Virus record (IMG/VR): IMGVR_UViG_2718218100_000015
Source: a virus
Lineage: Duplodnaviria; Heunggongvirae; Uroviricota; Caudoviricetes
Strand: one strand, 5' to 3'
DNA length: 25,384 nucleotides
Part shown: piece by piece, positions 1-20,613 of the stretch
Layout of the letters: every line of letters starts with the position of its first letter
Position numbering within the stretch: the stretch's first letter is position 1
Made by a program: the position numbers and the translations under genes
Notes under the pieces: generated by a model
What the model was told of the DNA's origin: nothing
Seen by the model: only the letters and a program-made list of their open reading frames with translations
Databases searched by the model: none

Positions 1-675
1 ATGTCTGCACCTGCATTGCCTGATGTCAGAACAGTATTTTGATTAATTGCCAGGGTTACAATGGCACAAATGCGGCACAGGAGGAAACGTGGTGTATTTA
101 AATATGGGGTAACTACTTGATTTAAATGGTGCGATAATAGGAACCAATAATCGCCACCAACACAATGATTTTAATACATAAATTAAAATAGAAGATTTAA
201 ACTACACACACCCCTATACACATTGGTGAAGGCGTTCGCTTTCCGCGCATTCTCAAGGCAGAAAAAACTTTTTTTGGGGGAAAACTGTTCATACTACTCA
301 TTGTGTTTTTTTTCATTAATATTCAAAAAGATATGAAATTAACGATTGATAAGAAGTGAACACTTTACTGTTCACCTTGACTGATTAATAAGTGCATAAA
401 AACCTAATTTTTGAGCACGGAAGGTATTTGTTCCTTACCCCATTTTTTCTCTTTAGTCCAGTACAACAAAAAATGCGCCCAACAGAAAACTGTTTTGAAT
501 TTAAATGCAATCGCTTTGTAGTGATTGTAACGTAAGTTGATTTGATGGGTGCGATTTTGTTTAGCGATAATGGTATGTTGTAAAAATCATTTCGTTGCAA
601 TAAAATTGCATCGCTACATTTTATAGACAATATCAATTAAATTTTAATACTCATTATTAATTTTGAGGCTAACAA

Positions 676-1632
676 GTGACTAGTTATTCAAACTTTTCCA
701 ATCAAATAAAAGAAACCATCAATAATAAATTCGATCATGAAATTCATGATTGGGACATTATAAAAAACTCAATCACAACTTTAACAAATAAAAATATCCA
801 TGGTGCAGGTAGAAATATCGTTGATTTTATAGATTTAGGTAACTGGGATTTTATTTCAAACTTTTCCTTTGATGACTCTACAAGAAGACTTGAATTAGAG
901 TGGCACCCCAATGATAAATTCCATATATATATTGAGTCCGTTGTGTTTGTCGAGTTTAATGACACTATATATGCTTTCTTAAAGGGATACTATCACAATC
1001 AGTTATCTCTAAATAGAATATATAATACAAAATGCTCTTCATGTTCATTTGAAAACTCAGGTTCTTATATGGTAGACGTTTATAGAACGGTTAAAAGAGT
1101 AAATGAGACAATCCAGACCCCAAATATAAATTGCTATACTACATGTATTTTAACAAGGCCCGCAAATGGTCATGTTACATCTACAGGCTTCTCACGAAAC
1201 CTCATGGATGCGATAAATATTTCATTAGCAGAGCACAAAATAGCCTCTTTACATAATGAAGTCATGAGTATTGAGGAATATGATCGTGATTCTTTACAAG
1301 AGAAAGGAAATACTGCCAGGAGATATTTAGAATATATTCTCATGCTTGTTAATATTCGTATAATGCATTTAAACAACGTTCAATACCAAGAGCAAATGCT
1401 AGGTAGTTTAGTTTCTGTTATTGAGGCTCTGGACTATGAACCATTAATGAAAAATGATGTTGAAATTACAAAGGACATCCTTAATGCTTGCAGCCACCAC
1501 GGGGGGGTTAGAATTGAAAAGAAAGATGTAATTTTTTCTTTGGAAGTTATTGAAAACTTAATTAAAGCCATAAAGAAAACCGACATAAATAAATTACAAC
1601 TCGATGGGATGTTTAAATCAATTCAAAAATAA
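676..1632 (+). CDS. hypothetical protein, AT-rich accessory gene (318 aa), function unknown
   Basis: Long ORF with GTG start at 676 and GAGG 8 nt upstream; about 30% GC versus about 50% for the neighbouring primase; convergent with primase. Contains an Rx4H-like string (TRPANGH), which is weak evidence only. Confidence 0.5.
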   Translation: MTSYSNFSNQIKETINNKFDHEIHDWDIIKNSITTLTNKNIHGAGRNIVDFIDLGNWDFISNFSFDDSTRRLELEWHPNDKFHIYIESVVFVEFNDTIYAFLKGYYHNQLSLNRIYNTKCSSCSFENSGSYMVDVYRTVKRVNETIQTPNINCYTTCILTRPANGHVTSTGFSRNLMDAINISLAEHKIASLHNEVMSIEEYDRDSLQEKGNTARRYLEYILMLVNIRIMHLNNVQYQEQMLGSLVSVIEALDYEPLMKNDVEITKDILNACSHHGGVRIEKKDVIFSLEVIENLIKAIKKTDINKLQLDGMFKSIQK

Positions 1633-1764
1633 ACATCATCTAACAATGAATTAGATGCATTTTCCGCTGACGCCTTAGCATATAACTTTTAAATTTTATC
1701 GATATATATTTTGAGATAATTTCCTGTAGCGGATTTAAGACCGGCACAGCCGGTCTTAGGTCAG

Positions 1765-4098
1765 TTATTTCGCTGCAAACTCATCGCATTTTGGCAACCA
1801 GTCAGCATTGCTTTCCTCTCTTAGGGCCAGATTAGTCTGCATTCCTTGATTGGTCCGTCGTTTCTCATACTGCAGCCCATATTCCTTGAGCATTAACGGT
1901 AGCCCCTTGCCAAACATGGTCAGACTGAGCGTATTTTTATAGCCGTTAGCCTCCATGTAGACCAGATAGGCATGGTAGAGGTAAGTTCGAGGCTGACGTG
2001 GAACAATATTAGCGTTCCCCATAAACATGCCCGTGGTGTCAGGTAGGACCTCAAGGTAGCCGCAAAAATCAAAAGCTGAATCAGCATCACGTTTGATGGT
2101 GAGCGCTTCATCGGAGTTCTGCTGTGACTGAAGCAATGTCCTGGCACTCATTGGGTCGCTGAAACGCTGCATAAGCTGGCGAACAATCACCGCTAGCTCA
2201 CTGGCAATTTTCTCTTTGAGCTGGGTATCGCGTTCCTCCGGGGCTATCTGGTCGGGGAAATGCAGGATCACCCTTCGGCGTGAAACTCCACCACTACGAT
2301 CAGTGAAGCGCATCGGATTATTGTTCACAGCCAGGATGACCGCCGGGATGTGGGTTGAATAGGCGTTCTGATATTTGGGATCAACGGATACCGCATCGCC
2401 GCCAGTGATGGCTTTTAGTCCGGCCCCGTCACCGCTCCACTTTTCCTGGTCGGGAAGTCGAATCAGTGAAAAACCTATTAACGCAGCTCGTTCTCTTGGC
2501 GACTCAAGCATTTCAATGGTTGCCGAGGTCGCGTTATCTTCACCCGCCAGCATGGTTGCTATTTCAGCAAGAATACTCTTTCCACTTCCGCCAGGGCCAG
2601 TGACCTCCAGAAACAGCTGCCAGTCATAACGGTTAGCCAGCACCATAAACAATGCAGCCAGAATAATGTCCCGTTTTTCAGGATTAAAACCTGCGGCACG
2701 ATCCAGCCAGCGCCAGAATGCCGGGGCATGGGTTTCCAGTGACTCACCGTCAACGGGCTGCGTGTAATCCACCTCGCACAGCGTACGTAACCAGTGCTTC
2801 TTATCGTGCGGGCTGAACAATCCTGTCCGGGTATCGAGCACACCGTTGCGAAATCCGATAAGTTGCCGCGCCGGATTCTGCTGTTGCGGAACGATCAGTT
2901 TGAGGGTTTCCACGAGAGACGCAATTTTCGCGGATGAAAAAGGTGCGTCGAGGCGCTGAAACAGCGCAGCGACATCACGGGCAAAATCGGCGTAATAGAT
3001 AACTTTCCAGGCCCCCGCCTCATAGCGTGAAAGGAGCTGCCCGTTCGGGTCTACTGCCAGTGAATTTTTATAGTGATCCACTACCCTCTGCGCTTTTTCG
3101 CTGACGCTCAGCGCGGTAAATTCAGCTTCGCTCATTGTGTCGAAGGGGCTGGCAACAGCTGGTTTTATTACTTCATGAATTGCATGCCGGGTGGCTTCTT
3201 CGCCGTTTTGCGTGAATGCATCGTTCCAGTCACCAAACACAGGCGGGAGCGCCATTGTGCAATTGCAGGCCCCGGTAACAGCTGCGCCCCTTGTTTGCCC
3301 CGCACCGTTGAGATCGCGGTCAGCAGCAATAATTATCTGGTGCGTTGGGTACTCACTGCAGGCAATGCTCGCCAGGGAAAGGAAATTGACGGACGAAAAG
3401 GCCACCATGACAGCATCGCCAGTCAGATAGTTGATAGTAAGTGCGGTGGCATATCCTTCCGCTATCCAGAGCCGTTTGGCTGCTTTGGCAGTACCTTCAA
3501 CCAGGTAAAAGGCATTCTTAACCTGACCGCCTTTAAGGAAGCATTTGCCCCCATTAGCGTTGATTAACTGCAGATTTACCAGCTCTCCATCTGCATACAA
3601 TGGAACGACAAGATCTCCCGCGCGAAATGCCACACCACCGACTTTATGCATAGCGGTTAATTCCCGGCAAGGCAGTGCAGGAAACCCTTTACTCGTCAGA
3701 TAGGCATTGCCAGTGGTCTGGCGGGACTTATCAAACAAACGGGCAGCCAGCACTGCTGCAGCTTTTCTCCCGTCCTCTTTTTCAGGAGAACCAGATTCAA
3801 GCATTCCCTGAGATACTGGCAGCAGGTTTCCGATAATGCCGTTTATTCTGTCTGCCGCTTCACTAATGCCTACATCCAGTACTTTACTTACAAGCGCCAG
3901 GCCATCACCTGCCCCGCACTGGTTACAGAACCACGTTCCCCGCCCTTCCTGGTCATCAAATCGAAAGCGGTCTTTCCCGGCACAGACCGGGCAGGGCTGG
4001 TGCCGATTTTTCAGTACATTTACGCCCAGCGCAGGTAAAATTCTTGACCAGTGACCCCGAGCTGCTTTCTCAGCCTGGCTAACTTTCATTCCTGACAT
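1765..4098 (-). CDS. P4 alpha-like DNA primase/helicase (777 aa)
   Basis: N-terminal zinc-finger CPVCAGKDRFRFDD and CNQCG, Walker A VTGPGGSGKS in the C-terminal helicase part; ATG at 4096-4098 preceded by AAGGAGG (rc of 4107-4113); length equals P4 alpha. Confidence 0.9.
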   Translation of the reverse strand: MSGMKVSQAEKAARGHWSRILPALGVNVLKNRHQPCPVCAGKDRFRFDDQEGRGTWFCNQCGAGDGLALVSKVLDVGISEAADRINGIIGNLLPVSQGMLESGSPEKEDGRKAAAVLAARLFDKSRQTTGNAYLTSKGFPALPCRELTAMHKVGGVAFRAGDLVVPLYADGELVNLQLINANGGKCFLKGGQVKNAFYLVEGTAKAAKRLWIAEGYATALTINYLTGDAVMVAFSSVNFLSLASIACSEYPTHQIIIAADRDLNGAGQTRGAAVTGACNCTMALPPVFGDWNDAFTQNGEEATRHAIHEVIKPAVASPFDTMSEAEFTALSVSEKAQRVVDHYKNSLAVDPNGQLLSRYEAGAWKVIYYADFARDVAALFQRLDAPFSSAKIASLVETLKLIVPQQQNPARQLIGFRNGVLDTRTGLFSPHDKKHWLRTLCEVDYTQPVDGESLETHAPAFWRWLDRAAGFNPEKRDIILAALFMVLANRYDWQLFLEVTGPGGSGKSILAEIATMLAGEDNATSATIEMLESPRERAALIGFSLIRLPDQEKWSGDGAGLKAITGGDAVSVDPKYQNAYSTHIPAVILAVNNNPMRFTDRSGGVSRRRVILHFPDQIAPEERDTQLKEKIASELAVIVRQLMQRFSDPMSARTLLQSQQNSDEALTIKRDADSAFDFCGYLEVLPDTTGMFMGNANIVPRQPRTYLYHAYLVYMEANGYKNTLSLTMFGKGLPLMLKEYGLQYEKRRTNQGMQTNLALREESNADWLPKCDEFAAK

Positions 4099-4111
4099 TG
4101 TGCGGCCCTCC

Positions 4112-4435
4112 TTAGTGCAGCGCTGGTTTGTTGAGGTGACGGGAACAAAGTTCATCCATGACCGTCATTCCGAGCAGTGAGAGAACCGGACAGGCTTTAA
4201 GCGGCCCCGACTCCATCAGATCCGAAAGCAACGCGCAGGCAATTTCCAGCCCTCTTTGCTGCCCATGCTGGCGCAGATAGAACCCTTCCAGCTCGCGGGC
4301 TATGGCATCTTCAAGTTCAGCGAGCGTCAGGCCGGAATAACGTTCCTGATGATTGCTTAGAGCCAGCCAGGCACAGGCAACGGCACGGCGATACAGAGCG
4401 GCACGAAGTGCCAGAAGAGATTCACAGCATATCAT
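4112..4435 (-). CDS. hypothetical protein (107 aa) in P4-like early operon
   Basis: ORF whose stop overlaps the primase RBS; chained by overlaps to the upstream ORFs, which suggests translational coupling. No recognisable motif. Confidence 0.45.
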
Positions 4436-4656
4436 CAGGCCACCTCCGCATTCATCAGGTCGTCATGGCAGCGTTGCACCACTCCATCCAGTTGCTCTGT
4501 CATCAGATAAATGAGGGAAACCAGTTGTTCGCATTGGGCACCTGCTGGCTTTTCATAACAGTCCTGCAGGGCTGCCATGCCAGTTACATACTCACCCACA
4601 TTGCGTAAATGTTTCAGCCTTACAACATCGTCGTAGGAAATCTCAAACTGGTTCAT
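4435..4656 (-). CDS. hypothetical protein (73 aa)
   Basis: ORF overlapping the downstream ORF by 1 nt and the upstream ORF by 4 nt; no recognisable motif. Confidence 0.4.
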
Positions 4657-5210
4657 AGCGTCACCTCCCCGGCAGGCAGCCGTGCAGAAAGGGAGAGTAC
4701 ATAATCTCGGACTAGCAAACGGCGCGCGGAACGCTCATCGCAGGAGACAGTGCGAAGCATACAGATGCGGGGGTGAGTGTCAGCACGGCGGATTGCGGCA
4801 AACACAAAGACATATTGCGGGTGTGACGGGGTGAGGATTGTAGCCATGATGGCAGCCTCCAATAAGTAGCGGTTATTGCTACCACCGGAAACGCCAATTT
4901 CACTGGTGGCAGCCCGAACGGGGTTGGCGTAACCGGCCTTATTGGAAACCGGCCAGCCCGAAGGCTGCCCCGCCCGGACTACCATTATCTCGATAGAACC
5001 ATGGTGTAAGCATAAACACCACAGCCCTGAAAATGGTTGTGCCTGAGCTACGACGTAAAAAAAGACGCAAGGGGCGTCAATTGTCGCCAATAAGTTATAC
5101 GGAACGCCAATTCCGGCTGCCGATTTTGCGACAGCGGAAAAACTATACCTGGAAATGACGACAGTAAGCAAGCCAGAATAAAGGTATTTAATGTATGCAG
5201 GTATCATCAT
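4653..5210 (-). CDS. doubtful ORF (185 aa); may be partly non-coding P4-type immunity/leader region
   Basis: Start overlaps the alpA stop (ATGA), but composition is atypical (Cys/Trp-rich, low complexity) and the 5' part (about 4860-5200) looks like structured or intergenic sequence. Confidence 0.25.
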
Positions 5211-5467
5211 GCATCACATCCCCGCCCACGGGCGCTGATGCGGTCCGCCATCCATGCGCTGACCTCAGACTGTGCCCAGGCGACATTTTTACCGCCAAGC
5301 GGGATCTGCTTCGGAAACGCATCGCGGCTGATCAGGTCGTAAACGGTCGAACGGGACAACCCGCATAAGTGCATCACCTCAGGCAGGCGTAAAAATCGCT
5401 CATGATGGTTCGATACAGGAAATAATGGCGCAGCAGGAGCTGGCGCAGACACAGAAATATTACGCAT
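5207..5467 (-). CDS. AlpA/Vis-family prophage transcriptional regulator (86 aa)
   Basis: [32 protein letters not shown]...[14 protein letters not shown] matches the AlpA-type HTH pattern; sits at the head of the leftward operon ending in primase. Confidence 0.8.
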
Positions 5468-6302
5468 TTATCTACCCTCTTTAATTTCCACAACAGTCCG
5501 GATGAATTTATCCGGGTTCAGGTAGTTCCTTATTATGTGTATATAAACCACCTGCGCACGCATTTTTTATTTAGCGTCACATATTGATTTTATGGAATTT
5601 AAAGCCCGATTAAACCATATAAAATGACATAATAAATACCATGCCTGCGGACTATAAATACAGGAGCATTAATAGGAACTACCATTCACCCAGGGTTTAC
5701 TATCCTATGGGTCATTGCACCTGATAGTGCTAACCCCACCGCCAATACAGCAAGGCAGTACAACTTCTACACGAGGCCTTGCATTGCAGGCCCCAATTTC
5801 CGGGCATATTTTTGAATCGCATCCAACTTATAAACATTGGGCCTGCATAAAAACCTTGATATTAAATAACATCACCTTAAATCGTAAAATATATCCGAAT
5901 GAATCCATAAAGAACCGGACAGATCTAGTTTTATAAAAATCAGTATGAAATGCAACACCATGGCCAGAGGCGAAAATGTTATTCCCCGGCAAAAACATGC
6001 AGTCTATTTATGTGCCTGTTGAATACTCCTGAATAAGGGTGAATAGTGGTGAGGAGCAAAAAACAAATAGCTACGAGGAATAAAAAAACCACCCATTATG
6101 AAAAAATACCATAAATAATTTTATTCCCATGTGAACAGTTATGAACAGTCGATGAATACTGCCATGCCAACCCTTCACCTTATAACCTTCTGTATTACCT
6201 ATTTTTTTTACCTAAGTGAATAGTTAAGGTAAGTCTGAAACAGCCTTAGTTAAACGAGGCCTTTTCTGGCTAGCCAAAAGAGGTCCGGGGCGGTTCAGTC
6301 TT

Positions 6303-6320
6303 TGTCTTGTCGCTCGCACA
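6303..6320 (+). promoter_or_regulatory. TGT-N12-ACA dyad, candidate Ogr/Delta-dependent late promoter element upstream of sid
   Basis: tgt cttgtcgctcgc aca at 6303-6320, centred about 80 nt upstream of the sid ATG at 6391; P2/P4 late promoters carry this dyad near -55. Confidence 0.45.
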
Positions 6321-6390
6321 ATGGCGTTCAATGGCAGCTTTGTATGCATCACAGCACAATTGACACCACGACAAACCACTAGGTGCTGAC

Positions 6391-7143
6391 ATGACAATCC
6401 CAGAACAGAACAATAACCCGATCGTTGAAATTTCTATCCCTGTTTCGACGCAACAGGCGCTTGAGAAAGTGAATGCCACCAAATCTGCATGGCTTGAAGC
6501 ACGTCGTCAGCAAAAAGCGGCAGCGGATAATATTGCGACAATCCGCCAGCGCCGCGCTGAAATGGAAGCCACGACGAACGCCCTGAATGAGGAGTGGCGC
6601 ACGCTATTTCGTGAAAGTCAGGGCGTAGTCTCAAAGGAAATGAAAAAACTGCGCACGGAAATTGCGCTGGGACGAGAAACGCTTGAGGATTTTGATGAGC
6701 TGCTGGCGGCTCAGGAAAGCGAAAATGCACTTTTGCCGCAGGAGGCTGCGGAATTAGCCGGAAAGTATATCCACGCGCACGACACCCTTGTGGGTATTCG
6801 CGCAAAACAAATCTGGGAAGATTTTATGCAGTCGCATGGAAAAGCACTAATCCAGACACTAAGCCTGCTCAAATCAACAATGGGCAGGGAAGCCAGCGCA
6901 GTTGTCGGTGTGGTGCATTCAGTTAATGACCCGGACACACTGCTGAAAGATTTTATTCATAAACATATCACCAGACCGGCTCTGACTAACGATGCGATGC
7001 CCGAACAGGACCCCGTGTTTAAACTGGCGGGAGTTGCCCCGGATTATGCGGCCCGTCTGGATTTCAGTAATAAACTCTCTCCAGCAGCTATGCATAAAAT
7101 GAAGGTTCGTCAGGAACGTGCTGAGAAGGAGAAAGCAGTATGA
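6391..7143 (+). CDS. sid: Sid-like capsid size determination (external scaffold) protein (250 aa)
   Basis: Charged/helical 250-aa protein first in an operon followed by Psu-like and Ogr/Delta genes; size and context match P4 Sid. Assignment is by context, not motif. Confidence 0.55.
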   Translation: MTIPEQNNNPIVEISIPVSTQQALEKVNATKSAWLEARRQQKAAADNIATIRQRRAEMEATTNALNEEWRTLFRESQGVVSKEMKKLRTEIALGRETLEDFDELLAAQESENALLPQEAAELAGKYIHAHDTLVGIRAKQIWEDFMQSHGKALIQTLSLLKSTMGREASAVVGVVHSVNDPDTLLKDFIHKHITRPALTNDAMPEQDPVFKLAGVAPDYAARLDFSNKLSPAAMHKMKVRQERAEKEKAV

Positions 7144-7691
7144 TGGCCCGAGTCACTCCAGACCAAGCGCTTATCAGTTTTAGAAATGCCCGTATTCTGT
7201 GGGCTGGACATAGTGAGAGCCGAAAAGCCGTTGAACAACAGATAGAATCACTCCTCACTGCCATGGAAAAACCAGCAGATTATGCTCGACAGCTCGAATT
7301 ACAGCGGGAACATCTGGATGTGCTGAAATGGCAAATTAACTGTGCTGCGCGCGAATGCATTTACTCGCAGCATCAACTGATGGAGGCCTGCACAGAAGAC
7401 GCTCTCAGCAATTTTATGCAGGCGAATGGAGCAGCCCTGACATCTGCACTGGCTCCGTTCCTGAAGGGGCGCGGAGGGGTTGACGTTGCGTCCCGTATAT
7501 TACGCAATGCTCTGGTTCGCCAGCTGGCAATAACACCGCCTGAAATTGCCGGGGATTATCGTATGATTCTGGATGAATCCGGTGTGATGCCTGACCCCAT
7601 GATGGTTCGTGATTGCCAGAGCTCTTACACCCCTGCACAACAACTGCGCTTTCAGCAACGTCTGGATTACATTAACGGCATGCAGGAGTAA
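7140..7691 (+). CDS. psu: Psu-like polarity suppression / capsid decoration protein (183 aa)
   Basis: ATGA overlap with sid; recalled similarity to P4 Psu (KWQINCAAREC, QANGAALTSALAP, YTPAQQ) and size close to 190 aa. Confidence 0.65.
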   Translation: MMARVTPDQALISFRNARILWAGHSESRKAVEQQIESLLTAMEKPADYARQLELQREHLDVLKWQINCAARECIYSQHQLMEACTEDALSNFMQANGAALTSALAPFLKGRGGVDVASRILRNALVRQLAITPPEIAGDYRMILDESGVMPDPMMVRDCQSSYTPAQQLRFQQRLDYINGMQE

Positions 7692-7696
7692 TATTA

Positions 7697-7969
7697 ATGG
7701 CACTTAAATGTCCCGAATGCGGTACGACGGCACACGCCAGAACCTCCGCCTATGAAGCACCATCGGTTAAACGCTCATGGTATCAGTGCCAGAATCTTGA
7801 ATGTTCCTACACATTTACCGCACTGGAAAGTGTGGATACGATAATCATGAAGCCCCGGCGCAATGAACAGGAATCAGAGAAAGCACAAATGCCGGAAAAA
7901 CAACAGCAAACTCTCAATCGCTATGGCTCCGCGTCAAAGCTGTCAAGCCGTCAGCAAATTCCTGTCTGA
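7697..7969 (+). CDS. Ogr/Delta-family zinc-finger late transcription activator (90 aa)
   Basis: CPECGTTAHARTS...YQCQNLECSYTF is the Ogr/Delta C4 zinc-finger signature; GGAG RBS at 7685-7688. Confidence 0.85.
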   Translation: MALKCPECGTTAHARTSAYEAPSVKRSWYQCQNLECSYTFTALESVDTIIMKPRRNEQESEKAQMPEKQQQTLNRYGSASKLSSRQQIPV

Positions 7970-7990
7970 TTAGCAAAAAAAGCCCACGTA

Positions 7991-8017
7991 ATCCCGGTCC
8001 AGTACTGGGATTTTTTA
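7991..8017 (+). terminator. intrinsic terminator after the late operon
   Basis: Hairpin atcccggt-ccagt-actgggat (8-bp stem with one GU pair) followed by TTTTTT at 8011-8016, 22 nt after the delta stop. Confidence 0.55.
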
Positions 8018-8378
8018 CGCCTTTTCCCTGGCTGGCCTGAGAGCGCATGAGTGCATGTCTATAGCGCATGAAAACGCATGATTCTCATGCACCATTTTTG
8101 ACGCGAAAGCCCTTGTGTGGTGGCTTCTGAGACGATTTGCGGAATGCATGAAAACCAGTCTGTTAAGCGAAGCGAGCAGGCGTGGGGGGCTGCGCGCGCT
8201 AAGGGGTTAGATTATAAAATATCAAACGCCGGTGAGATCCATTATTGTGGAACCACCCGAAGGAAGTGTAGAGGCGAAAGTACCCAAAATAATTTTGCAA
8301 ATTATTTAGAAATGAACTGAGCGCTCGAAACGAAATATAATTTCGAGCACCCCAATTAGCAGTTATATTTTTAATGTA

Positions 8379-8945
8379 TTAAACAGGATAAAAACCAGAG
8401 CTTCCATTCTTATTTAAGTTATGGATTTTATTTGCATCATTAATTTTTATTTGGAACGTCGGACCTTTATTCTCAAGAATTACAATCTGGAAATTATAGT
8501 CCCTTTTGATTAATGCGTGATAAAATGAATCACTGAGACTGACGCTATTAACATCCGATAGAGAACCCCCTCTATCTTTATCAAAGTGCGTCACTAATGG
8601 ACTATCAAGCACAACAAATCCAATGAATGGATTCCCTTTTCTTGATAAAAATTCCGCAAAGCAAATGGTAAATATAGCATGCATTACTGCACGGGTACCT
8701 TTACCAAACATTCCTCGGCGTTTCCCATTGATATTAAAGTCATATGTATCTTCGTCAAATCGCACTTTGTTATCTTTAGAATTTTCAAAATTTATATCAT
8801 TCAAAAAGTCTTGCATCGCTATTTCTATATCATACAAATCAGCTACTGTTAAGGAGTCAAAGTCCTCGGCGGAGTATTTAAGTTCGTCAACATCATCTTC
8901 TTTATCTTGTAATGAAGATAGAATGCTATGTTTTGTGTGATCCAT
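8379..8945 (-). CDS. C-terminal ATPase part of a split SMC/ABC-type ATPase (signature-like FGKGTR, Walker-B-like FVVLDSP), 188 aa
   Basis: ATG at 8943-8945 overlaps the upstream stop (TAATG); FGKGTRAVMHAIF...FIGFVVLDSPLVTHFD resembles ABC signature plus Walker B/D-loop; last gene of the AT-rich cargo operon. Confidence 0.5.
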   Translation of the reverse strand: MDHTKHSILSSLQDKEDDVDELKYSAEDFDSLTVADLYDIEIAMQDFLNDINFENSKDNKVRFDEDTYDFNINGKRRGMFGKGTRAVMHAIFTICFAEFLSRKGNPFIGFVVLDSPLVTHFDKDRGGSLSDVNSVSLSDSFYHALIKRDYNFQIVILENKGPTFQIKINDANKIHNLNKNGSSGFYPV

Positions 8946-9535
8946 TAAAAGATTGTCTTTATATTCATAAAGTGATTCAAGAGATGAATGTATTGTTTTA
9001 TATTTTTATCTTCTAACGTCTTAAAATCACTTTTTTCTGATTGATAAATTTCATTAACATCATTTTTTCTTAACATAATTAATTCATGTTCGCGAACATT
9101 AGATCCGATTGATTCAATTAATCCTTTCAGCTGGCTTTTGATTTTCAATTTTTCTGCATTACACGACAAAAAACAATCATCATATGATATTTCATTTTCT
9201 TTTTTTTGCGGTGTATTACAGAACTCACAATAAATATCTGCAAAATTATTTAAATAGAAATTCGCCTGTGATACAACATCTATTCTTTGTAGATCTATAA
9301 AGTATTGGTCTTTAAGAAGACTAAATCTTTCAATGAGTAATGATAAGTATTTTTCCCTGTCACTGATTGAATATAATTCATCACTTAACTCTTTTAATAA
9401 TTGCTTCTTATCATCAAGTGCATCAACAATACCTTTCAATATATCTTTCGATGATTCAATATCTTGCTCTACTTTCTCAAGTTCTCTTGAAACAATGACT
9501 TGATCATATTCAGGATAAATTAATTGCGCTTTCAA
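8945..9535 (-). CDS. coiled-coil middle segment of the same ATPase (196 aa); no ATG, follows an in-frame TAA
   Basis: In the same frame as ORF 9566-10225, separated only by TAA at 9566-9568 and 10 sense codons; heptad-like charged sequence with CEFC...CFLSC Cys pairs. The ORF-track 'start' is TTG. Confidence 0.45.
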   Translation of the reverse strand: MKAQLIYPEYDQVIVSRELEKVEQDIESSKDILKGIVDALDDKKQLLKELSDELYSISDREKYLSLLIERFSLLKDQYFIDLQRIDVVSQANFYLNNFADIYCEFCNTPQKKENEISYDDCFLSCNAEKLKIKSQLKGLIESIGSNVREHELIMLRKNDVNEIYQSEKSDFKTLEDKNIKQYIHLLNHFMNIKTIF

Positions 9536-9565
9536 TTCCTCATAAATATTTGCAATTTGATTTTT

Positions 9566-10198
9566 TTAAAAATATCTTGCTTTTTTATTTGGTTTTTCTG
9601 CTAAGGAGTTAGTATCATCTCTCTGAGTTAAAAGGAATTTAAATTCAGACTTTCTTTTTGTCTCCTCGCTAGGAATATCAGAAAGAATTAACGACTTCTC
9701 AGTTAACACTCTTAATTCATCAATATAAAAAAATTCAAAAACATTATTAAGATTAAATTTATGAAGAGTATTACTTAAGTTTGTTCTTACTTTAGCCTCT
9801 TTGAAATTCAACCTACCATAAAAGTATGATGAAAAACTCTTTTTAGACGAAGCACTTTTGGAAAAAACCATCAACAGATTAGCTTCACTAACATTTTCAA
9901 TGCTCGAATCATATAATCTGTAATGGGCGCTATCCTGAAGAGACCTCTCAATTGTCATTACCCTACCTTGAAAATTAAATTCCAGATAGGCTAAATCATA
10001 ACCTTGAGCATGATCGATATCTTTATTTTTTAGTTTTTCACTCCCTAATAAATATCGAATCAAATAATATATGTATGTTTTTCCAGAGTCAGAACCACCA
10101 TATAAAATAGTCAATTTAGAACCAAATTCAATTATAGCATCTAATTTATTGAATCCGGTTACCTTTATTTTTCTGAACGTAAAAAAATTGTCATTCAT
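9566..10198 (-). CDS. N-terminal Walker-A part of SMC/ABC-type ATPase (LmuB-like), terminated by in-frame TAA
   Basis: ATG at 10196-10198 (MNDNFFTFRKIKVTGF...), Walker A ILYGGSDSGKTY at residues 32-41; ends at TAA 9566-9568 with the reading frame continuing downstream. Confidence 0.55.
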   Translation of the reverse strand: MNDNFFTFRKIKVTGFNKLDAIIEFGSKLTILYGGSDSGKTYIYYLIRYLLGSEKLKNKDIDHAQGYDLAYLEFNFQGRVMTIERSLQDSAHYRLYDSSIENVSEANLLMVFSKSASSKKSFSSYFYGRLNFKEAKVRTNLSNTLHKFNLNNVFEFFYIDELRVLTEKSLILSDIPSEETKRKSEFKFLLTQRDDTNSLAEKPNKKARYF

Positions 10199-10649
10199 AA
10201 TTAAATTCCATATCATATTTGCCAATTTTATTTTTTATAATTGATTGCAACTGCTCATCAGGAATATCACTATATAACTTAACCACCAAATTTATATTAT
10301 GCTCCATCTGCGCAACATATTCATTATGTAGAGAATTTGTAAATGCATATGTTTTTTCAGAAGCTTTATATACAAAACCACGATGTGTATAAATTTTTGA
10401 GGCTAGTTCATAGCCTTGCAACAAAGCCAATGATTCTAAAACAATCTCTCGTTTTAGGGCTAACTGAGCATCTCTACGGGGTATTGGAGGATGAAGACTA
10501 ATCTCTTCAGGTAAAAAATCCTTAAGATTTACTAAAATAAAATCAAAACAAATAAGCCGTTCAAGGCTTAATGAAGAAGGATAAATAGCGACGAGCACTT
10601 TCGCCATTCGACATGCCACTTCTAAACTTGAATTATAAATTCTAACCAT
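10191..10649 (-). CDS. small hypothetical protein (152 aa) of the cargo operon (LmuC-like position)
   Basis: ATG at 10647-10649 overlaps the stop of the upstream ORF (TAATG); stop overlaps the start of the ATPase gene; no recognisable motif. Confidence 0.45.
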   Translation of the reverse strand: MVRIYNSSLEVACRMAKVLVAIYPSSLSLERLICFDFILVNLKDFLPEEISLHPPIPRRDAQLALKREIVLESLALLQGYELASKIYTHRGFVYKASEKTYAFTNSLHNEYVAQMEHNINLVVKLYSDIPDEQLQSIIKNKIGKYDMEFNYE

Positions 10650-11266
10650 TATCTCACCGTCCAAATTACTTCACCATCATTAACCAAATGATGGCATATT
10701 CCTTTTTTATCATTTGCTTCACATATTTTTGATAGTACTGAATGTGCAATTGGTGTCAGAACAGCCTGCTTCAAGACTGCATTACACCTAATAAATGCAT
10801 AATTATGGTCTTCATAAAAGACGGGTTCAATTGAAGATGAAATGTAACATTTCAATGCTTTGAATACATCATCTTTAAATACTTCGCGGACAAAAACCTC
10901 AAGCGAAGATGCAAAATAAAAATCATTTCTACTATTATTAAAGTGTCGTCTGTATGGATCATCAAGCTCTAAGAAAGAACTATAAGTTTTATTTCCATGC
11001 TCTGAATAGGCTTGAAGCAGTGCATTAACATATACAGACTCTTTTTTTGAATTGTATGTTGGAATTTCATTTGGAGGGATTCTCACGACATACAGCTCGT
11101 TAAAGTACTTAAAATAAAGGTGTGTATTTGCAATATCATTTAAAATCAATGATAAGGGTAGAGAGTAAAAAATACTAAAATCAAAATCCTCAATATATTT
11201 TTTTATTTCATCATCTAATGGAATATCAATCTTTTTAGTTATTTTTTTGAAATTGCTGAATCCCAT
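10649..11266 (-). CDS. C-terminal portion (205 aa) of putative effector; probably the same gene as 11239-11655 after a frameshift
   Basis: Overlaps the upstream ORF by 28 nt around an A7 run (T7 at 11242-11248 on the plus strand); the two frames differ by 1. Confidence 0.45.
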   Translation of the reverse strand: MGFSNFKKITKKIDIPLDDEIKKYIEDFDFSIFYSLPLSLILNDIANTHLYFKYFNELYVVRIPPNEIPTYNSKKESVYVNALLQAYSEHGNKTYSSFLELDDPYRRHFNNSRNDFYFASSLEVFVREVFKDDVFKALKCYISSSIEPVFYEDHNYAFIRCNAVLKQAVLTPIAHSVLSKICEANDKKGICHHLVNDGEVIWTVR

Positions 11267-11655
11267 GAATCAAGGACTGCTTTTTTAAGCTCGTTTTTAT
11301 TTTTCAATAAATTAGAAAATGTAGTAGATAAATCATAGGGTGCCACAAAAAAGTACTTCTGAGGGATGGGATAATCACCATTCAGAGTAAAATAGATAAG
11401 TTTTCCAAACTCAACTACAACATCAGAGAACCCTAAACTTTTTTTGTACAGTTTGCATTGATAATTATCCCAAGAATAACCTTCTACGTTAGGATCCGAT
11501 TTATATCCAACAACGTCTCTACCTTTATCTCCAGCTCCTCCCAAACGTTCGCTCCACGGGTAATCATCTGATTTACAGACAATAAGCCAATCATGGACAA
11601 ATACCTCCCATTGTTCATCATCCCATGTCAATATTTCCGAAAGTGGTTGAGACAC
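11239..11655 (-). CDS. N-terminal portion (138 aa) of putative effector with Mrr/Cap4-like PD-(D/E)xK nuclease signature
   Basis: GGAGDKGRDVVGY...NYQCKLYKK fits the D-x-G-x-D ... Q-x-K pattern of Mrr-type restriction-endonuclease folds; first gene after the integrase in the cargo slot. Confidence 0.5.
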   Translation of the reverse strand: MSQPLSEILTWDDEQWEVFVHDWLIVCKSDDYPWSERLGGAGDKGRDVVGYKSDPNVEGYSWDNYQCKLYKKSLGFSDVVVEFGKLIYFTLNGDYPIPQKYFFVAPYDLSTTFSNLLKNKNELKKAVLDSWDSAISKK

Positions 11656-11658
11656 AAA

Positions 11659-12840
11659 TTAACTCCTTTTTAGTCTTTCAAATATCAAATTACTGTACCA
11701 GTCCATCATAGACTTCCTTCCACTAAAATATTGAGCATGGTTATAAGTCCCCCTAATAGAATTTTTATCTACATGAGCCAACTGGATTTCAATCCAAGCA
11801 CTCTCAAAACCTTGCTCATGCAGGATTGTAGAAAGGGTATGACGAAAACCATGTCCAGTGACTTTTCCTCCATACCCAATACGCTTAATGGCTTGATTTA
11901 TACTCGCTTCGCTCATTGGCCTATTCGGATCGTTCCGCCCTGGAAAAACATAACGATAGTTCCCTGTCATGATCTTGAGTTCATTGAGTAAATCTACCGC
12001 TTGAGATGATAAGGGCACAAGATGTGGCCTACGCATTTTCATCCTTTCAGCAGGAATTTCCCAAATAGCGTTATCCAGATCAAATTCTTGCCATAATGCC
12101 GCGCGTAATTCGATGGTTCTCACACCCGTAATCATCAGTAATTTCGTGGCTATCTGGACAAGCTTACTCCCGGAGTAACCCTCTAAGGCACGTAGAAAAT
12201 CAGGTATCTCATCAGCTTTTAGGAATGGGAAATGATTGGATTGGTGTACTTCGAGAGCGCTGGAGAGCTCAGCCGCAGGATTGTACTCCGCCCTACCCGT
12301 TGCAATTGCGTAGCGAAACACTTCGGAGCAACGCTGCCGCACTTTGCGCATTTTCTCCAACGCACCACGTTTCTCAATTTTACGCAGAACGTTCAGCAGC
12401 TCTAGCGGTTTAATCTCTCCCACAGGCCTTGTTCCGACATAAGGAAAAATGTCGTTCTTAAACGCTTCCATGATGTCTGATGCATATCCCGCCGACCATT
12501 TAGCAGATTTAAGTTGATGCCACTCTCTGGCTATCTTTTCGAAGGCGTTCTCTGACTCTGTTTGCATAGCTAGCTTTTGCTCTTTTCGAACCTCACTAGG
12601 GTTCTTTCCTTCTGCCACAAGTTTTCGAGCTTCATCACGACGGGAACGAGCATCGGCAAGGGTGATCGTTGGGTAAACACCAAGCGAGATCATTTTGGGT
12701 TTGCCGGCATAGCGATAGCGGAACCGCCAACTCTTGCTTCCATTAGGTTCTATAAGTAATGACAACCCTAGCCCATCTCCAAATGTATAGGCTTTAGCTT
12801 CAGGCTTAGCGCGGCGAATCTGCATATCGTTTAAAGGCAT
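11659..12840 (-). CDS. int: P4-type tyrosine integrase (393 aa)
   Basis: ATG at 12838-12840 (MPLNDMQIRRAKPEAKAYTFGDG...); catalytic region HGFRHTLSTILHEQG ... IRGTYNH; lies 160 bp downstream of a tRNA-Thr 3' fragment in the same orientation. Confidence 0.9.
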   Translation of the reverse strand: MPLNDMQIRRAKPEAKAYTFGDGLGLSLLIEPNGSKSWRFRYRYAGKPKMISLGVYPTITLADARSRRDEARKLVAEGKNPSEVRKEQKLAMQTESENAFEKIAREWHQLKSAKWSAGYASDIMEAFKNDIFPYVGTRPVGEIKPLELLNVLRKIEKRGALEKMRKVRQRCSEVFRYAIATGRAEYNPAAELSSALEVHQSNHFPFLKADEIPDFLRALEGYSGSKLVQIATKLLMITGVRTIELRAALWQEFDLDNAIWEIPAERMKMRRPHLVPLSSQAVDLLNELKIMTGNYRYVFPGRNDPNRPMSEASINQAIKRIGYGGKVTGHGFRHTLSTILHEQGFESAWIEIQLAHVDKNSIRGTYNHAQYFSGRKSMMDWYSNLIFERLKRS

Positions 12841-13002
12841 GTGTATAGGAATCCAGACCGAACAGGAACATATACACAATCCTATACACATTCAGTACCG
12901 GATTCTACTGGATGGTTACGGACTACTATGGACTTAAAAGAATAAAAAATGTTATAAATCAGAGATTTTATGGACTAATACGGACGTTTGAGGAAGTTGA
13001 GA

Positions 13003-13048
13003 TGGTGCCGATAATAGGAGTCGAACCTACGACCTTCGCATTACGAAT
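13003..13048 (-). other. 3' fragment (about 46 nt) of tRNA-Thr(CGU), thrW-like; att-site remnant, 5' half absent
   Basis: Reverse complement reads ATTCGTAATGCGAAGGTCGTAGGTTCGACTCCTATTATCGGCACCA (anticodon loop through CCA end); sequence beyond 13048 does not continue as D-arm or acceptor stem. Confidence 0.75.
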
Positions 13049-13249
13049 TATAAGAATCCGCTTCTAATTCAAAGCATTACCCCATCAACACTGCGCTCAC
13101 ACGTCCCACCACATCAAAACATGTAAAGCCTTGCAAGCCATTGCGAGGCCTTATGTGTCTCAGTTTTGTCCCACCTTGTATTACGACTTGCATAGCCAAT
13201 GAAGATAAACGTGACGACAAACGGCGCAGCAGTCTTCTTTTCTTTCACG

Positions 13250-13795
13250 ACTTCTCCAGCATGCATACCTTTCTGCCATGACTGAAGTGAATGCCTGTTA
13301 TGAGCAAGGATTGGCCCAGATGAATCGCCCTGGACTGTTGCGATCGTGAAGCCATAGACTGGGCCGCAAGCACGGGAGGTTACGATAAAGCGACAGTGCA
13401 GGATGTCATGTTAGGAGCGATAGAAAAACGCTTTGGCGATAAAGTACCGGAACAGTCCATCCAGTGGCTGACAGATAACGGTTCAGCGTATAGAGCGCAT
13501 GAAACACGGCAGTTCGCCAGAGAGTTGAATCTGGAGCCCTGCACAACGGCAATCAGCAGTCCTCAGAGTAATGGAATTGCAGAAAGGTTCGTGAAAACGA
13601 TGAAGGAAGACTACATCGCGTTCATGCCGAAACCGAATGTAAGAACGGCATTGCATAATCTTGCAGTGGCGATCGAACATTACAATGAAAACCATCCGCA
13701 CAGTGCGTTGGGTTATCGCTCTCCGCGAGAATATCGACGTCAGCGGGTAACGTTAACTTAAGATACCCCCCCTGTCTGGAAATAAGGGGGCAAGA
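13250..13795 (+). mobile_element. IS2-group (IS3 family) insertion sequence remnant, right-end portion only
   Basis: Encodes a transposase C-terminus resembling IS2 OrfB; terminal sequence tgtctggaaataaggggg at about 13773-13792 resembles the IS2 right end; left boundary approximate. Confidence 0.6.
13321..13761 (+). pseudogene. IS2-like transposase OrfB, C-terminal fragment (DDE/rve domain tail)
   Basis: Frame reads [35 protein letters not shown]...[25 protein letters not shown]...[20 protein letters not shown]...[19 protein letters not shown]; upstream frame closed at 13321. Confidence 0.7.
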
Positions 13796-13802
13796 ACAAT
13801 GA

Positions 13803-14546
13803 TCAGATTCCCTGGTGAGTAAGAATTTTACTTTCTGAACTCCTCTGAGAGTATTGACTTGGAGAAACACCAAAATAACGTCTAAATACATAAGTAAAGT
13901 ATGAGACACTGGCATAACCACAGACCTTAGCTACTTTACTAATAGGATAACAACGAGTGCTGAGTAAATATTCAGCCATTTGCATCCTCTCATCAAGTAT
14001 GATCTTACTGAATGATACCCCCTCTTCTTTCAATTTCCTCTTTAGTAAACTTTCGCTGAGATATAATCTTGATGATATATCCTTAAGACGCCATGGTGCA
14101 GATAAATCCGTATGAATAATCGTTTTAACTTTAGCCCCTGTGCTTTTCAAACATCCAAACAGAAATACTCCAAATTGTTTTTCAGAAGAAAATGCAGAGA
14201 GACATGTAAAAGCAATAGACTCATCAAAAATTTCTATGTATTCAGCACAGTGATTAGCCCAACTAATTAATCCTTTAATTAAACTGAAGTCAGCAAAGTT
14301 TATTTTTAAATAAGATGGATATTCCCTACAATCAGAAATATCCCTTAAGTTATTAGCTTTCAAATAGCGACTAATAAACTCAGCGCCAAAATCCGCCACT
14401 ATCACTCTTTCAGGATATGTCAGGAAAAAATCTCTAGAGCTAGAGTCGACAAGTACAGATGAACCTCTCTCCAGAAACACACTCTCTTTTCCGAAATAAA
14501 CATCAAAGGACTCCAAAATCAATATAACTGAACATGTAGTTGCCAT
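13803..14546 (-). CDS. AraC-family transcriptional regulator (247 aa), AT-rich, Rns/AggR-like
   Basis: C-terminal HTH_AraC region LSESLLKRKLKEEGVSFSKIILDERMQMAEYLL...ISKVAKVCGYASVSYFTYVFRRYFGVSPSQY; low GC with a long AT-rich upstream region. Confidence 0.75.
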   Translation of the reverse strand: MATTCSVILILESFDVYFGKESVFLERGSSVLVDSSSRDFFLTYPERVIVADFGAEFISRYLKANNLRDISDCREYPSYLKINFADFSLIKGLISWANHCAEYIEIFDESIAFTCLSAFSSEKQFGVFLFGCLKSTGAKVKTIIHTDLSAPWRLKDISSRLYLSESLLKRKLKEEGVSFSKIILDERMQMAEYLLSTRCYPISKVAKVCGYASVSYFTYVFRRYFGVSPSQYSQRSSESKILTHQGI

Positions 14547-15128
14547 ATCATCCCCCCAATTTAACTGAAACCAGGATGAAGTATATGTATATAAAGTTCA
14601 CTTTGCCAAACTTCAGTATAAAAAACCACTAAAAATAGGGTGTGATAAAAAATACCGTAACAATAAAGCAAAGGATTATAAATTCCGTTACAGTTACAAA
14701 TGATACTCAAGAAACAATTCCTTAGGAAAAACTTATTTACAGCCAATAAGTAAGACACTTATATGATATCAAGTTTTCATAAAACATAACTAGGCTAAAT
14801 AGCTGCGCCTAATACCGCTACACTTTTGCCAGCCCATGTTTGCCTCCGGGTATTGACCCCTTCTCTACGCAACTTCAGTTCCCACCACCAACTTTGCGGC
14901 AGCTTTGTAGGATCAATGTCTAAAAGAATAATGGTGACCGATAAGAAAACGACTGAATAACTGCAGATTTTCGCTCAAAACCTTCCTGTCAGATCCATAG
15001 CGAATCAAGTGCTGAATGTCACAGTATCGAACAGAAAACAGTGACGATCTAACCCTTCAAGAATATTCTACGATTGTTCTGTTTAGGAAAAGCAAGACGG
15101 GAAGTCGGGAGATAAGTCATTGATAAAG

Positions 15129-15190
15129 TGGCGGAGAGAGGGGGATTTGAACCCCCGGTAGAGTTGCCCCTACTCCGGTTTTCGAGACCG
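15129..15190 (-). other. 3' fragment (about 62 nt) of tRNA-Ser(CGA), serU-like; att-site remnant, 5' part absent
   Basis: Reverse complement reads CGGTCTCGAAAACCGGAGTAGGGGCAACTCTACCGGGGGTTCAAATCCCCCTCTCTCCGCCA (anticodon loop, long variable arm, T-arm, CCA); upstream sequence does not continue as tRNA. Confidence 0.75.
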
Positions 15191-15273
15191 ACCCGATCAT
15201 CAAACGAAACATAAAATTAGCTCACATTATGAGGAAAGGTATCTTTTTGCGCTATGTAAATTCAAAGGGTTAG

Positions 15274-16143
<870 letters not shown>

Positions 16144-16200
16144 ATCTTCAAGTGGTAAGCATAAACCGCAGCACGATCTTGCATACGACGTGCTACGGTT

Positions 16201-16755
16201 TCATTTATCTCCGGCCGGAAACTTCTTATACAGTGTCGATACACCAACATCATAGATGATCGCTACCTTCTGGCGAGGAATTCCTGCTGCAATTAATCGT
16301 CCGGCCTGCGCCCATTGTTCTGGTGTAAGTTTGGGACGACGTCCACCAATTCGTCCCTGTGCGCGAGCAGCTTCCAGTCCAGCTTTTGTTCGTTCAACAA
16401 TCAGTTCTCGTTCCATTTCAGCCAGGGCCCCCATCACATGAAAGAAAAAGCGCCCCATTGGGGTACTGGTATCAATAGCATCCGTCAGGCTGCGAAAATT
16501 AACGCCACGTTCGCGCAACTCCTCAACCAGAATGACCAGATGCCGCATACTGCGCCCCAGCCGATCCAGTTTCCAGACAACCAGAGTGTCACCTGCCGAT
16601 AATGTCCTGAGCAGTTTTTTCAGTCCCGGCCTTTCGGACTTTGTACCGCTTATCTTGTCTTCAAAAATCAGCTCGCATCCTGCACAGTTCAGCGCATTAC
16701 GTTGTAGATCTGTGTTCTGGTCATTTGTTGACACACGTACATAGCCAATAAGCAT
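16201..16755 (-). CDS. pin: Pin/Hin/Gin-family serine DNA invertase (184 aa)
   Basis: MLIGYVRVSTNDQNTDLQRNAL... with catalytic Ser in VRVST and a C-terminal HTH; very close to e14 Pin as recalled; adjacent to the invertible segment. Confidence 0.9.
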   Translation of the reverse strand: MLIGYVRVSTNDQNTDLQRNALNCAGCELIFEDKISGTKSERPGLKKLLRTLSAGDTLVVWKLDRLGRSMRHLVILVEELRERGVNFRSLTDAIDTSTPMGRFFFHVMGALAEMERELIVERTKAGLEAARAQGRIGGRRPKLTPEQWAQAGRLIAAGIPRQKVAIIYDVGVSTLYKKFPAGDK

Positions 16756-16821
16756 GGTAGATCTCCCTGACAAAAGCAGGAATGATGCCATTTGCTCGTT
16801 ATTTCTGCATTTTCATAAACG

Positions 16822-16852
16822 TTGGTTTGGGAGAAGGTGCTCCAGCTATTGG
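16822..16852. repeat. left crossover site (inverted repeat) of the Pin invertible segment
   Basis: ttggtttgggagaaggtgctccagctattgg is the inverted complement of 18574-18603 with one single-base indel; lies 67 bp upstream of the pin start. Confidence 0.6.
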
Positions 16853-17067
16853 CGTTCCGTTCTTCTGGCGTCCGCTGCAATGCCAAATACTGTAATCGAC
16901 AGCTGGTCCTGTATGGTGTTTTGAAGTTCAACGGCGCGAAATTCTCTGCCACTGATTATCCTGTGCTGGCGAAAGTGTTTCCTTCGCTGGTATTACCTGA
17001 AGCCGCGGTGATTTCATTCGTATCTGGGATGACGGGCGAGGTGCAGACGGTGGTCGCGAATTATTAA
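16822..17067 (+). pseudogene. alternative tail-fibre C-terminal variable module (silent orientation)
   Basis: Frame starting inside the left crossover site encodes ...KFNGAKFSATDYPVLAKVFPSLVLPEAAV..., typical of a tail-fibre tip; would be joined to the constant part after inversion. Confidence 0.4.
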
Positions 17068-17284
17068 GCTGGCAGGCAGCTACAAACTTTTCTCAGTTTG
17101 CCGGAATATAGGCGAAGGTGCGGGACACGCAATTAACTTTCATGATGGCATCGCCGGAAATCAGCCAGGATTTTCACGATTTAATTTCACCAGTAACTCT
17201 GTGGGTGATGGTGTGAATTTTGTTGCAGTCAGACGCGAATATTGCATTTAACTTTCTGGTGAGGCTAAATAATGAAACCTGTTT

Positions 17285-17793: not shown

Positions 17794-17835
17794 CGGCAAC
17801 AGATACCAGCACGCGCCGGATGTCATCTGGCTGAA

Positions 17836-18247: not shown

Positions 18248-18465
18248 ATAAATCACCCTGAATAAAATTACTCACCACAGCCCACCAACTGTAATTCATC
18301 GATACCGTGTCGCTGGTTGATGACGTTCTGTAAGCAGAATTAAAGCGTTAACGTTGGCCTTCTGCAGTCATCACGAACCTCGCCAGCGCCTAAAGGCGCA
18401 CCGCCATCACCAGAATGAGTAAGCATGGCGCAGTCCGCTTTTTGGGAAAGGATGCTGAATGTAAT

Positions 18466-20169: not shown

Positions 20170-20179
20170 AATGACTCCT

Positions 20180-20495: not shown

Positions 20496-20574
20496 ATGTA
20501 AGTATTTCCTTAGATAACAATTGATTGAATGTATGCAAATAAATGCATACACCATAGGTGTGGTTTAATTGGAT

Positions 20575-20589: not shown

Positions 20590-20613
20590 TGGAATGTGTA
20601 AGAGCGGGGTTAT

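Follow-up and report, generated by a model that had tools for sequence, protein, structure and literature searches.

A two-domain protein family with a HEPN-fold C-terminal domain, carried between primase and att of a P4-like satellite, as a putative single-gene phage-defense candidate

The thrW element and its primase-att slot

The window, by which we mean the whole stretch of 25,384 nucleotides analyzed, contains a P4-like satellite integrated at thrW in the chromosome of Escherichia coli O157:H7, and the gene under study lies within this satellite, between the alpha primase gene and att (Table 1). Two att core repeats were identified, the left of which reads ATGGTGC-GATAATAGGA, and positions 1 to 142 of the window match thrW-adjacent sequence in element-free strains, where this flank abuts thrW-proA. 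Based on the two repeats and this flank, the element therefore extends from approximately 126 to 13019. The backbone genes that surround the gene are P4-like, namely, an integrase, a variable region, psu/delta/sid, an AlpA-type regulator, an Icd-like gene, and the alpha primase.

Table 1. Features of the locus, in window coordinates
Feature	Position	Strand	Remarks
att core repeat, left element end	126..142		Partial copy of the tRNA-Thr (thrW) 3' end; 17/18 match to 13002-13019
Inverted pair of P4-type iteron-like octamers, GTGAACA / TGTTCACC	355..376		Weak
Shine-Dalgarno sequence GAGG	665..668	+	Read from the sequence; 7 nt 5' of the GTG start
CDS, 318 aa, two-domain protein	676..1632	+	WP_072616962.1; same coordinates in RefSeq, "hypothetical protein"
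N-terminal alpha+beta domain, residues 1-169	676..1182	+	Predicted YojF/ChuX-like fold; putative sensor
TRPANGH, residues 160-166	1153..1173	+	"Rx4H" string of the first-pass annotation; end of N-domain, nonconserved
C-terminal helical domain, residues 170-318	1183..1629	+	Predicted HEPN fold
Helix-2 motif N212-x2-R215-x3-E219-x3-(K/M)223	1309..1344	+	Corresponds to HEPN Ex3[KR]
Helix-3 end motif [L/A/S/T/C/I]269-N270-x-x-S273-H274 plus G277	1480..1506	+	
GC-rich hairpin, 14-bp stem	1732..1762		Between convergent genes; P4 backbone, probably primase terminator
P4 alpha-type primase-helicase	1765..4155	-	One border of the cargo slot
psu/delta/sid	6391..7969		P4-like element gene block
Integrase	11659..12891	-	
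Second att core repeat, right element end	13002..13019		Beyond the integrase; continues into a partial tRNA-Thr 3' end

The first-pass annotation, which was made from the DNA letters alone, had placed an ORF of 318 amino acids at 676 to 1632, and RefSeq agrees exactly in coordinates and strand. A near-identical form of the protein, WP_000205213.1, is present in other O157 strains, and the GTG start agrees with the N termini of the aligned homologues. The GC content was 31.5% both for the gene and for the noncoding flank at 143 to 675, in line with the earlier estimate of about 30% in AT-rich noncoding surroundings, and was 52% for the adjacent primase gene. The reported convergence with the primase gene, which is separated from the ORF by 132 bp, was also found, whereas the term "primase-distal" was misleading, since the gene adjoins the primase and lies at the integrase-distal end of the element. 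A promoter scan gave nothing above chance, and we therefore claim no promoter.

The ORF is a real gene under purifying selection. Pairwise comparison with homologues resulted in dN/dS ratios of 0.06 to 0.21, with dS near saturation, and the GC content was 28 to 36% in all homologous copies, irrespective of the host. A lack of coding conservation in related elements had been named as a finding that would count against the first reading; instead, constraint was accompanied by full-length homologues in many genera. An intact, ~100% identical copy was present in 306 of the 5,426 complete E. coli genomes, and the records sampled among these 306 were O157:H7 plus one O55:H7. In addition, positions 1 to 1800 of the window matched more than 300 complete genomes at 99.9 to 100% identity. 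A spurious or decaying ORF in AT-rich junk DNA might show the same AT richness, GTG start, and absence of database annotation, but this explanation is already refuted, and its residual probability is negligible in view of the low dN/dS ratios, the breadth of full-length homologues, the 306 intact copies, and a confident structure prediction for the 318-amino-acid protein.

The first-pass annotation had also called for a comparison of related P4-like elements, and this revealed that the slot between primase and att differs in content. Homology to related P4-like primase genes (92% and 76 to 79% nucleotide identity) stops at window positions 1780 to 1786, within the primase gene and ~15 to 20 bp short of its 3' end. 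(i) In the thrW element of strain 65COLEC, the slot is occupied by a different gene, encoding 365 amino acids, which matches PADLOC SIR2 models (E value of 4e-9). (ii) The elements at the ypjA site of strains 789 and LR-03 have no annotated gene in the slot. (iii) The ypjA-site element of another E. coli strain (locus L025) carries a 76%-identical orthologue. The region of this orthologue aligns to window positions 647 to 1860 at 75% nucleotide identity, through the hairpin into the 3' end of the primase gene. When L025 is compared with LR-03, its copy amounts to a clean insertion of ~1.36 kb, with a cluster of TGTTCAC iteron-like repeats on one side and the hairpin and primase 3' end on the other. 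Both L025 and LR-03, the latter without the gene in its slot, keep sequence that is homologous to the hairpin region and the primase 3' end; the hairpin thus belongs to the P4 backbone, and it is probably the terminator of the primase gene. As a separate observation, the slot gene of 65COLEC (L017:4789-5886, minus strand), which is annotated as hypothetical and accompanies a 92%-identical primase, is a probable single-gene SIR2 defense candidate.

A 2026 survey of P4 elements described the primase-att slot as a minor defense hotspot that accommodates 7% of the P4 defense systems (PMC13586616). The location of the gene is this known minor hotspot: the gene at 676 to 1632 lies between att (126 to 142) and the primase gene (1765 to 4155), and the content of the slot differs among related elements and includes a defense-type gene. 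The gene fits none of the systems that are named in the main text of the survey.

A pair of octamers is present at 355 to 376, and we take these to be the same as the P4 alpha-binding iteron. They are a possible remnant of the cis replication region (crr), an assignment that is only tentative, since 20 TGTTCACC octamers were found over the whole window versus 18 expected, a number not above chance. At the equivalent position between att and the cargo gene, L025 contains approximately six TGTTCAC iteron-like copies (L025:7600-7720); the O157 element keeps only one inverted pair, which may reflect a degenerate cis replication region. The location of the gene between the primase gene and iteron-like repeats would be compatible with a role in P4 replication or maintenance, as an accessory of the cis replication region beside alpha. 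This explanation is largely refuted and must be judged very improbable: the gene is missing from closely related P4-like elements that keep the primase and the iterons (LR-03 and 789), homologues occur in non-P4 contexts, and the GC content of the gene is foreign to the P4 core.

Two observations concern the remainder of the window. (i) The main hotspot of the element, between psu and int, contains a Lamassu (ABC-3C) system at 8379 to 11655 (minus strand) that looks broken. Positions 10 to 140 of the LmuA profile are found in ORF 11239-11655 and positions 141 to 333 in ORF 10649-11266, and the LmuB profile is distributed over three ORFs (positions 3 to 199, 231 to 412, and 428 to 608 in ORFs 9566-10225, 8945-9535, and 8379-8945, respectively). 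LmuC (10191-10664) is intact, and the Lamassu pieces are listed in RefSeq as separate proteins, not as pseudogenes. A synthesized Lamassu system from O157:H7 strain FRIK944 was without activity (Rousset et al. 2022, PMC9122126), with which the broken state is consistent, and the two may represent the same locus. If they do, the gene at 676 to 1632 may be the only intact defense-type gene of the satellite. (ii) According to the annotation, a second, degraded element lies in tandem at thrW (13002 to 25384), beyond the att repeat and the partial tRNA-Thr. It contains an integrase-core fragment, an AraC regulator, a LEM-3-like GIY-YIG protein, IS1203, pinE, frameshifted tail-fiber genes, and replication-protein pseudogenes.

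Predicted domains and the HEPN motif

The AlphaFold2 model obtained with the family alignment (pLDDT of 87.3 and pTM of 0.83) predicts two domains, namely, a nonenzymatic alpha+beta N-domain and a C-terminal HEPN four-helix bundle. The N-domain shares its predicted fold with YojF of Bacillus subtilis (PDB 1njh) and with HemS/ChuX/HutX-like domains, at sequence identities of 7 to 14%. It carries a conserved acidic loop (D50, D53, D58, and W57) plus W76; this loop, with its three Asp residues, and two N-terminal helices are specific to the family. The function of YojF is not known, and to deduce heme binding by the N-domain from this similarity is unjustified. A weak match to the Pfam Cbl EF-hand-like family (E value of 0.019), seen in 3 family members, covers window positions 730 to 885 (residues 19 to 70) and includes the acidic loop D50-F-I-D53-L-G-N-W-D58; this loop could bind a metal or cation, or the match could be due to chance.

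In the C-domain, the model contains helix-1 (170 to 197), helix-2 (204 to 229), an insert helix (242 to 250), helix-3 (261 to 273), helix-4 (282 to 301), and an extra helix (304 to 317). The top structural matches of this domain were MNT-HEPN toxins. A search of the C-domain profile against all PDB sequences retrieved no HEPN protein and no credible match, and the BFVD library of viral structures gave nothing at an E value of ≤0.001.

The Rx4-6H motif of HEPN domains is located at the end of helix-3 or the start of the loop to helix-4; the residue following the Arg is usually N, D, or H, and helix-2 of many families contains an acidic Ex3[KR] motif (PMC3710099). When the family was inspected for these features, we found that (i) H274 directly follows the helix 261-273 and precedes a loop and the helix 282-301, as is typical of the HEPN His; (ii) the canonical Arg is missing, since residue 269 varies among L, A, S, T, C, and I and no conserved Arg is found at 267 to 269; (iii) the polar residue after the Arg position is present as N270; and (iv) the acidic residue of helix-2 is present as the invariant E219. 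Among 65 diverse members, with identities to the window protein down to ~20%, the only residues that never vary are R215, E219, H274, and G277. N212, N270, and S273 are each conserved in more than 90% of these members (61 of 65 for N270), and K223 is found in 54 of 65, with Met at this position in the O157 clade.

The HEPN site is thus not the one proposed initially. The first-pass annotation had noted an Rx4H string, TRPANGH, as compatible with, though far from proof of, a HEPN-type RNase. This string exists, but it is not a HEPN motif, given that H166 is present in only 1 of 33 close homologues and lies in the beta-rich N-domain. Furthermore, 54 of the 65 diverse members have a gap at R161, and the string was rejected as a chance occurrence. 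What stands of the hint at a HEPN-type RNase is the predicted HEPN fold of the C-domain; the site is a different one, and it has no canonical Arg. As no member has this Arg, it cannot be taken for granted that the protein is an RNase. There are precedents in families such as c2405 and Parep1/8, which have a "conserved H but lacks R," and other conserved basic residues may substitute (PMC3710099). From the alignment, R215 is the obvious candidate for such a substitute, because it is invariant and is located one turn before E219 on the helix described as facing the motif.

Several of the HEPN families with an incomplete motif are noncatalytic, and the motif is lost in substrate-binding HEPN domains (PMC3710099). 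The family might accordingly contain a HEPN domain that is noncatalytic and serves for binding or regulation, like the HEPN domains associated with nucleotidyltransferases or those of the MtlR type. The protein would then be a regulator or adaptor whose ligand might be, for example, a nucleotide, nucleic acid, or partner protein. The loss of the Arg of Rx4-6H in all members and the resemblance of the N-domain to ligand- or heme-binding folds are in its favor. We nevertheless consider it unlikely, since the His at the catalytic position, N270, S273, R215, and E219 are all kept at ~20% identity, as would be the case for an active site under constraint. In noncatalytic HEPN domains, the His is usually lost too. 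Moreover, no partner enzyme, be it MNT or another, is conserved beside the gene.

Because the loss of the Arg throughout the family is combined with an invariant Arg-Glu pair on the neighboring helix and with a YojF/ChuX-like N-domain, of a ligand-binding type, that has a conserved acidic loop, the protein may not be a conventional HEPN RNase; its active site may have been rewired for another substrate or another chemistry, a proposal that we regard as doubtful. Such a protein could be an effector gated by a small molecule or a metal, or a satellite nuclease directed against a particular tRNA or helper-phage transcript. If true, it would represent a new mechanistic class of single-gene immunity on phage satellites.

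The protein family and its genomic contexts

The gene had been described as an orphan, which proved incorrect: homology searches retrieved ~35 to 36 close clusters (44 to 80% identity), and a profile search retrieved 108 representative clusters. The close homologues, all of which are called hypothetical, were found in Escherichia, Citrobacter, Providencia, Pantoea, Pectobacterium, Proteus, Serratia, Enterobacter, Salmonella, Klebsiella, Buttiauxella, and Aeromonas. Of the 108 clusters of the exhaustive profile search, 65 had E values of <1e-10, and most members are of ~320 amino acids and span both domains; distant members include proteins of Vibrio cholerae, Marinobacter, Providencia, and Arcobacter. 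When the diverse alignment was used in a second search, based on a word index, a single further eligible protein was obtained, and a genome-locus search with the close alignment gave only one locus.

Scans of the 318-amino-acid protein against Pfam, PHROGs, PADLOC, and NCBIfam gave only chance-level matches, and none of the PADLOC-DB v2 families matched it. Similarly, Pfam and PADLOC scans of 83 diverse members returned nothing significant, the PADLOC matches being scattered and at chance level. DUF4145 (PF13643) was matched by 2 of the 83 members, with a best E value of 0.042 and below the gathering score, and not by the window protein. AbiTii was not among the Pfam families matched by at least 2 of the 83 members, and the Pfam and PADLOC models of AbiD/F, AbiJ, AbiU2, AbiV, and ApeA matched none of the 83. 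In strain CFT073, where c2405 is located seven genes after tcpC, hhalign of the family profile gave probabilities of 0.2% with c2405 and of 0.5% with its 320-amino-acid neighbor, so that we rejected membership in the AbiTii/c2405 family. Because these comparisons with named families gave no sequence relationship, the family is HEPN by fold and motif topology and lies outside DUF4145, c2405/AbiTii, and the HEPN systems modeled in PADLOC. A full-text literature search with the accession found no paper, and the DefensePredictor supplements, as far as they are searchable, contained neither the accession nor the family motifs. The protein family is thus without an earlier description in the libraries and literature searched, whereas single-gene HEPN defense and the slot were already known.

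Some members are longer than the two-domain core. These variants (P0036, P0068, P0074, and P0075, with ~470 to 510 amino acids, and P0049, P0087, P0126, and P0138, with ~570 to 610 amino acids) add a ~190-amino-acid N-terminal or a conserved ~270-amino-acid C-terminal extension. Six members match Pfam DUF3775 (best E value of 3e-7) and seven match DUF5673; these matches belong to the extra domains of the longer variants. The fusions might hint at triggers or partners.

The genomic contexts of the homologues are diverse, and no conserved neighbor was found across the contexts examined. (i) Two contexts are P4-like satellites, namely, those of the window and of L025. (ii) In an E. coli thrW island (L008:11446-16327), a 44%-identical homologue, P0032, directly follows the thrW integrase and is followed by three genes that match subunits A, B, and C of the PADLOC candidate system PDC-M60. 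(iii) In an ICE, the homologue is flanked by genes for a DNA methylase and ArdC, and an AAA_15 ATPase gene and type I restriction-modification (R-M) genes are 3 kb away. (iv) The Pectobacterium homologue follows the relaxase of a mobilizable element integrated at thrW, the Providencia homologue follows an ogr/delta gene near a Toprim primase, and the Enterobacter homologue is next to a P2-like baseplate remnant and a GmrSD gene. (v) A distant member of 477 amino acids adjoins an MmeI-type enzyme. (vi) The Serratia, Proteus, and Aeromonas homologues are lone islets between housekeeping genes, without a defense neighbor. This spread of contexts is the behavior of a self-sufficient single-gene cassette that moves between the cargo slots of mobile genetic elements (MGEs).

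Two further observations were made on these loci. Family members are present on three types of elements at tRNA-Thr(CGT) (the window, L008, and L023), which suggests cargo exchange between thrW islands. In Proteus (L005:11464-12591), a gene for a 375-amino-acid protein without a Pfam or PADLOC match lies behind the homologue in the same orientation; the left flank of this small islet varies between strains, and the 375-amino-acid gene may be an unrelated second cargo.

Mobility of this kind may also indicate that the protein serves the MGE itself, either as an addiction toxin, as a weapon against the satellite's own helper (for example, by degrading P2 transcripts and so favoring P4-like packaging), or as an antidefense protein. 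HEPN toxins are common in toxin-antitoxin systems, and two further observations are in agreement with such a role: the top structural matches are MNT-HEPN toxins, and several types of MGEs (satellite, ICE, mobilizable element, and integrase islands) carry the gene. Yet we judge it rather improbable for the following reasons. (i) No gene that resembles an antitoxin or encodes an MNT is conserved beside it, and neither the window nor about ten homologous contexts had a nucleotidyltransferase (MNT antitoxin) neighbor. (ii) Many P4-like elements lack the gene, which is therefore not part of helper exploitation. (iii) Lone chromosomal islet copies exist without any MGE backbone. (iv) No homologue was found in phage genomes or the viral structure library, which argues against an antidefense role typical of phages; tblastn against the INPHARED phages revealed no family copy, and tblastn against the PLSDB plasmids revealed only a misassigned fragment of the same O157 element.

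Proposed function and comparison with known systems

As the best-supported explanation, we propose that the protein is a single-gene effector, composed of a sensor and a HEPN domain, that functions in abortive infection or phage exclusion and is carried as satellite cargo; we infer this function from fold, motif, and location and regard the proposal as evenly balanced between being right and being wrong. The gene is thus a credible, albeit putative, new single-gene phage-defense candidate. The data that speak for an effector include the following. (i) The motif at the end of helix-3, the polar Asn, and the Ex3[KR] of helix-2 match the published HEPN rules (PMC3710099). (ii) The gene occupies the primase-att hotspot, and homologues are found beside PDC-M60, type I R-M, MmeI-type, and GmrSD genes. 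Against it speak the family-wide absence of the canonical Arg and the replacement of the helix-2 Lys by Met in the O157 clade, the lack of a sequence link to any HEPN family and of a PADLOC model match, and the isolation of several homologues among housekeeping genes with no defense neighbor.

As an effector, the protein might function as follows. The N-domain would sense an infection cue, e.g., a phage protein or a small molecule, upon which the HEPN domains would pair into a composite site; HEPN RNases generally act in pairs (PMC13017515). In this site, H274 would be the general base and R215 would replace the missing canonical Arg, and the site formed by H274 with N270, S273, E219, and R215 may cleave RNA, be it tRNA, rRNA, or mRNA. 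Translation would then stop, which would abort infections by phages competing with the satellite and its helper.

Several implications would follow if the protein is antiviral. An undescribed family of ~100 clusters in Gammaproteobacteria and Campylobacterota, without an entry in Pfam, NCBIfam, or PADLOC, would be added to the known defense proteins, and the little-studied primase-att hotspot of P4-like satellites would have a concrete occupant. Since a ~100% identical copy is present in 306 of the 5,426 complete E. coli genomes, the gene could affect the phage susceptibility, phage typing, or phage therapy of O157:H7/O55:H7 pathogens, and this possibility matters more because the Lamassu system of the element looks broken. 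Furthermore, a HEPN site that lacks the Arg and has a candidate for its relocation is a tractable case for studying how HEPN active sites are rebuilt.

Among known systems, MNT-HEPN toxins (HEPN-T/HEPN-M; TTHA0636 [1wwp], AF0298 [2hsb], SO_3166 [5yep], and 7ae2) are small, stand-alone proteins that are paired with a nucleotidyltransferase antitoxin and have an Rx4H motif, whereas the protein studied here has an additional N-terminal domain, no MNT neighbor, and a motif without the Arg. Like the protein studied here, AbiD/F, AbiJ, AbiU2, AbiV, and ApeA combine a HEPN effector with a variable N-domain in a single protein; they are mobile and are found in defense islands (PMC3710099). RAZR (PD-T7-4), a zinc-finger protein with a divergent DUF4145-type HEPN RNase, has been worked out experimentally (PMC13017515). 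It retains R146 and H154, both of which are needed for defense, and its N-domain is a zinc ribbon, unlike that of the family described here, but it provides a precedent for single-gene defense by a sensor and a divergent HEPN domain. The closest described architecture is that of c2405-type HEPN proteins (DUF4145-like clade) fused to an N-terminal AbiTii domain, in which an alpha+beta N-domain of ~170 to 180 amino acids is followed by a HEPN domain that has the conserved His but lacks the Arg (Anantharaman et al. 2013, PMC3710099); the features shared with the present family are a single gene, location in genomic islands, and a predicted Abi-type function.
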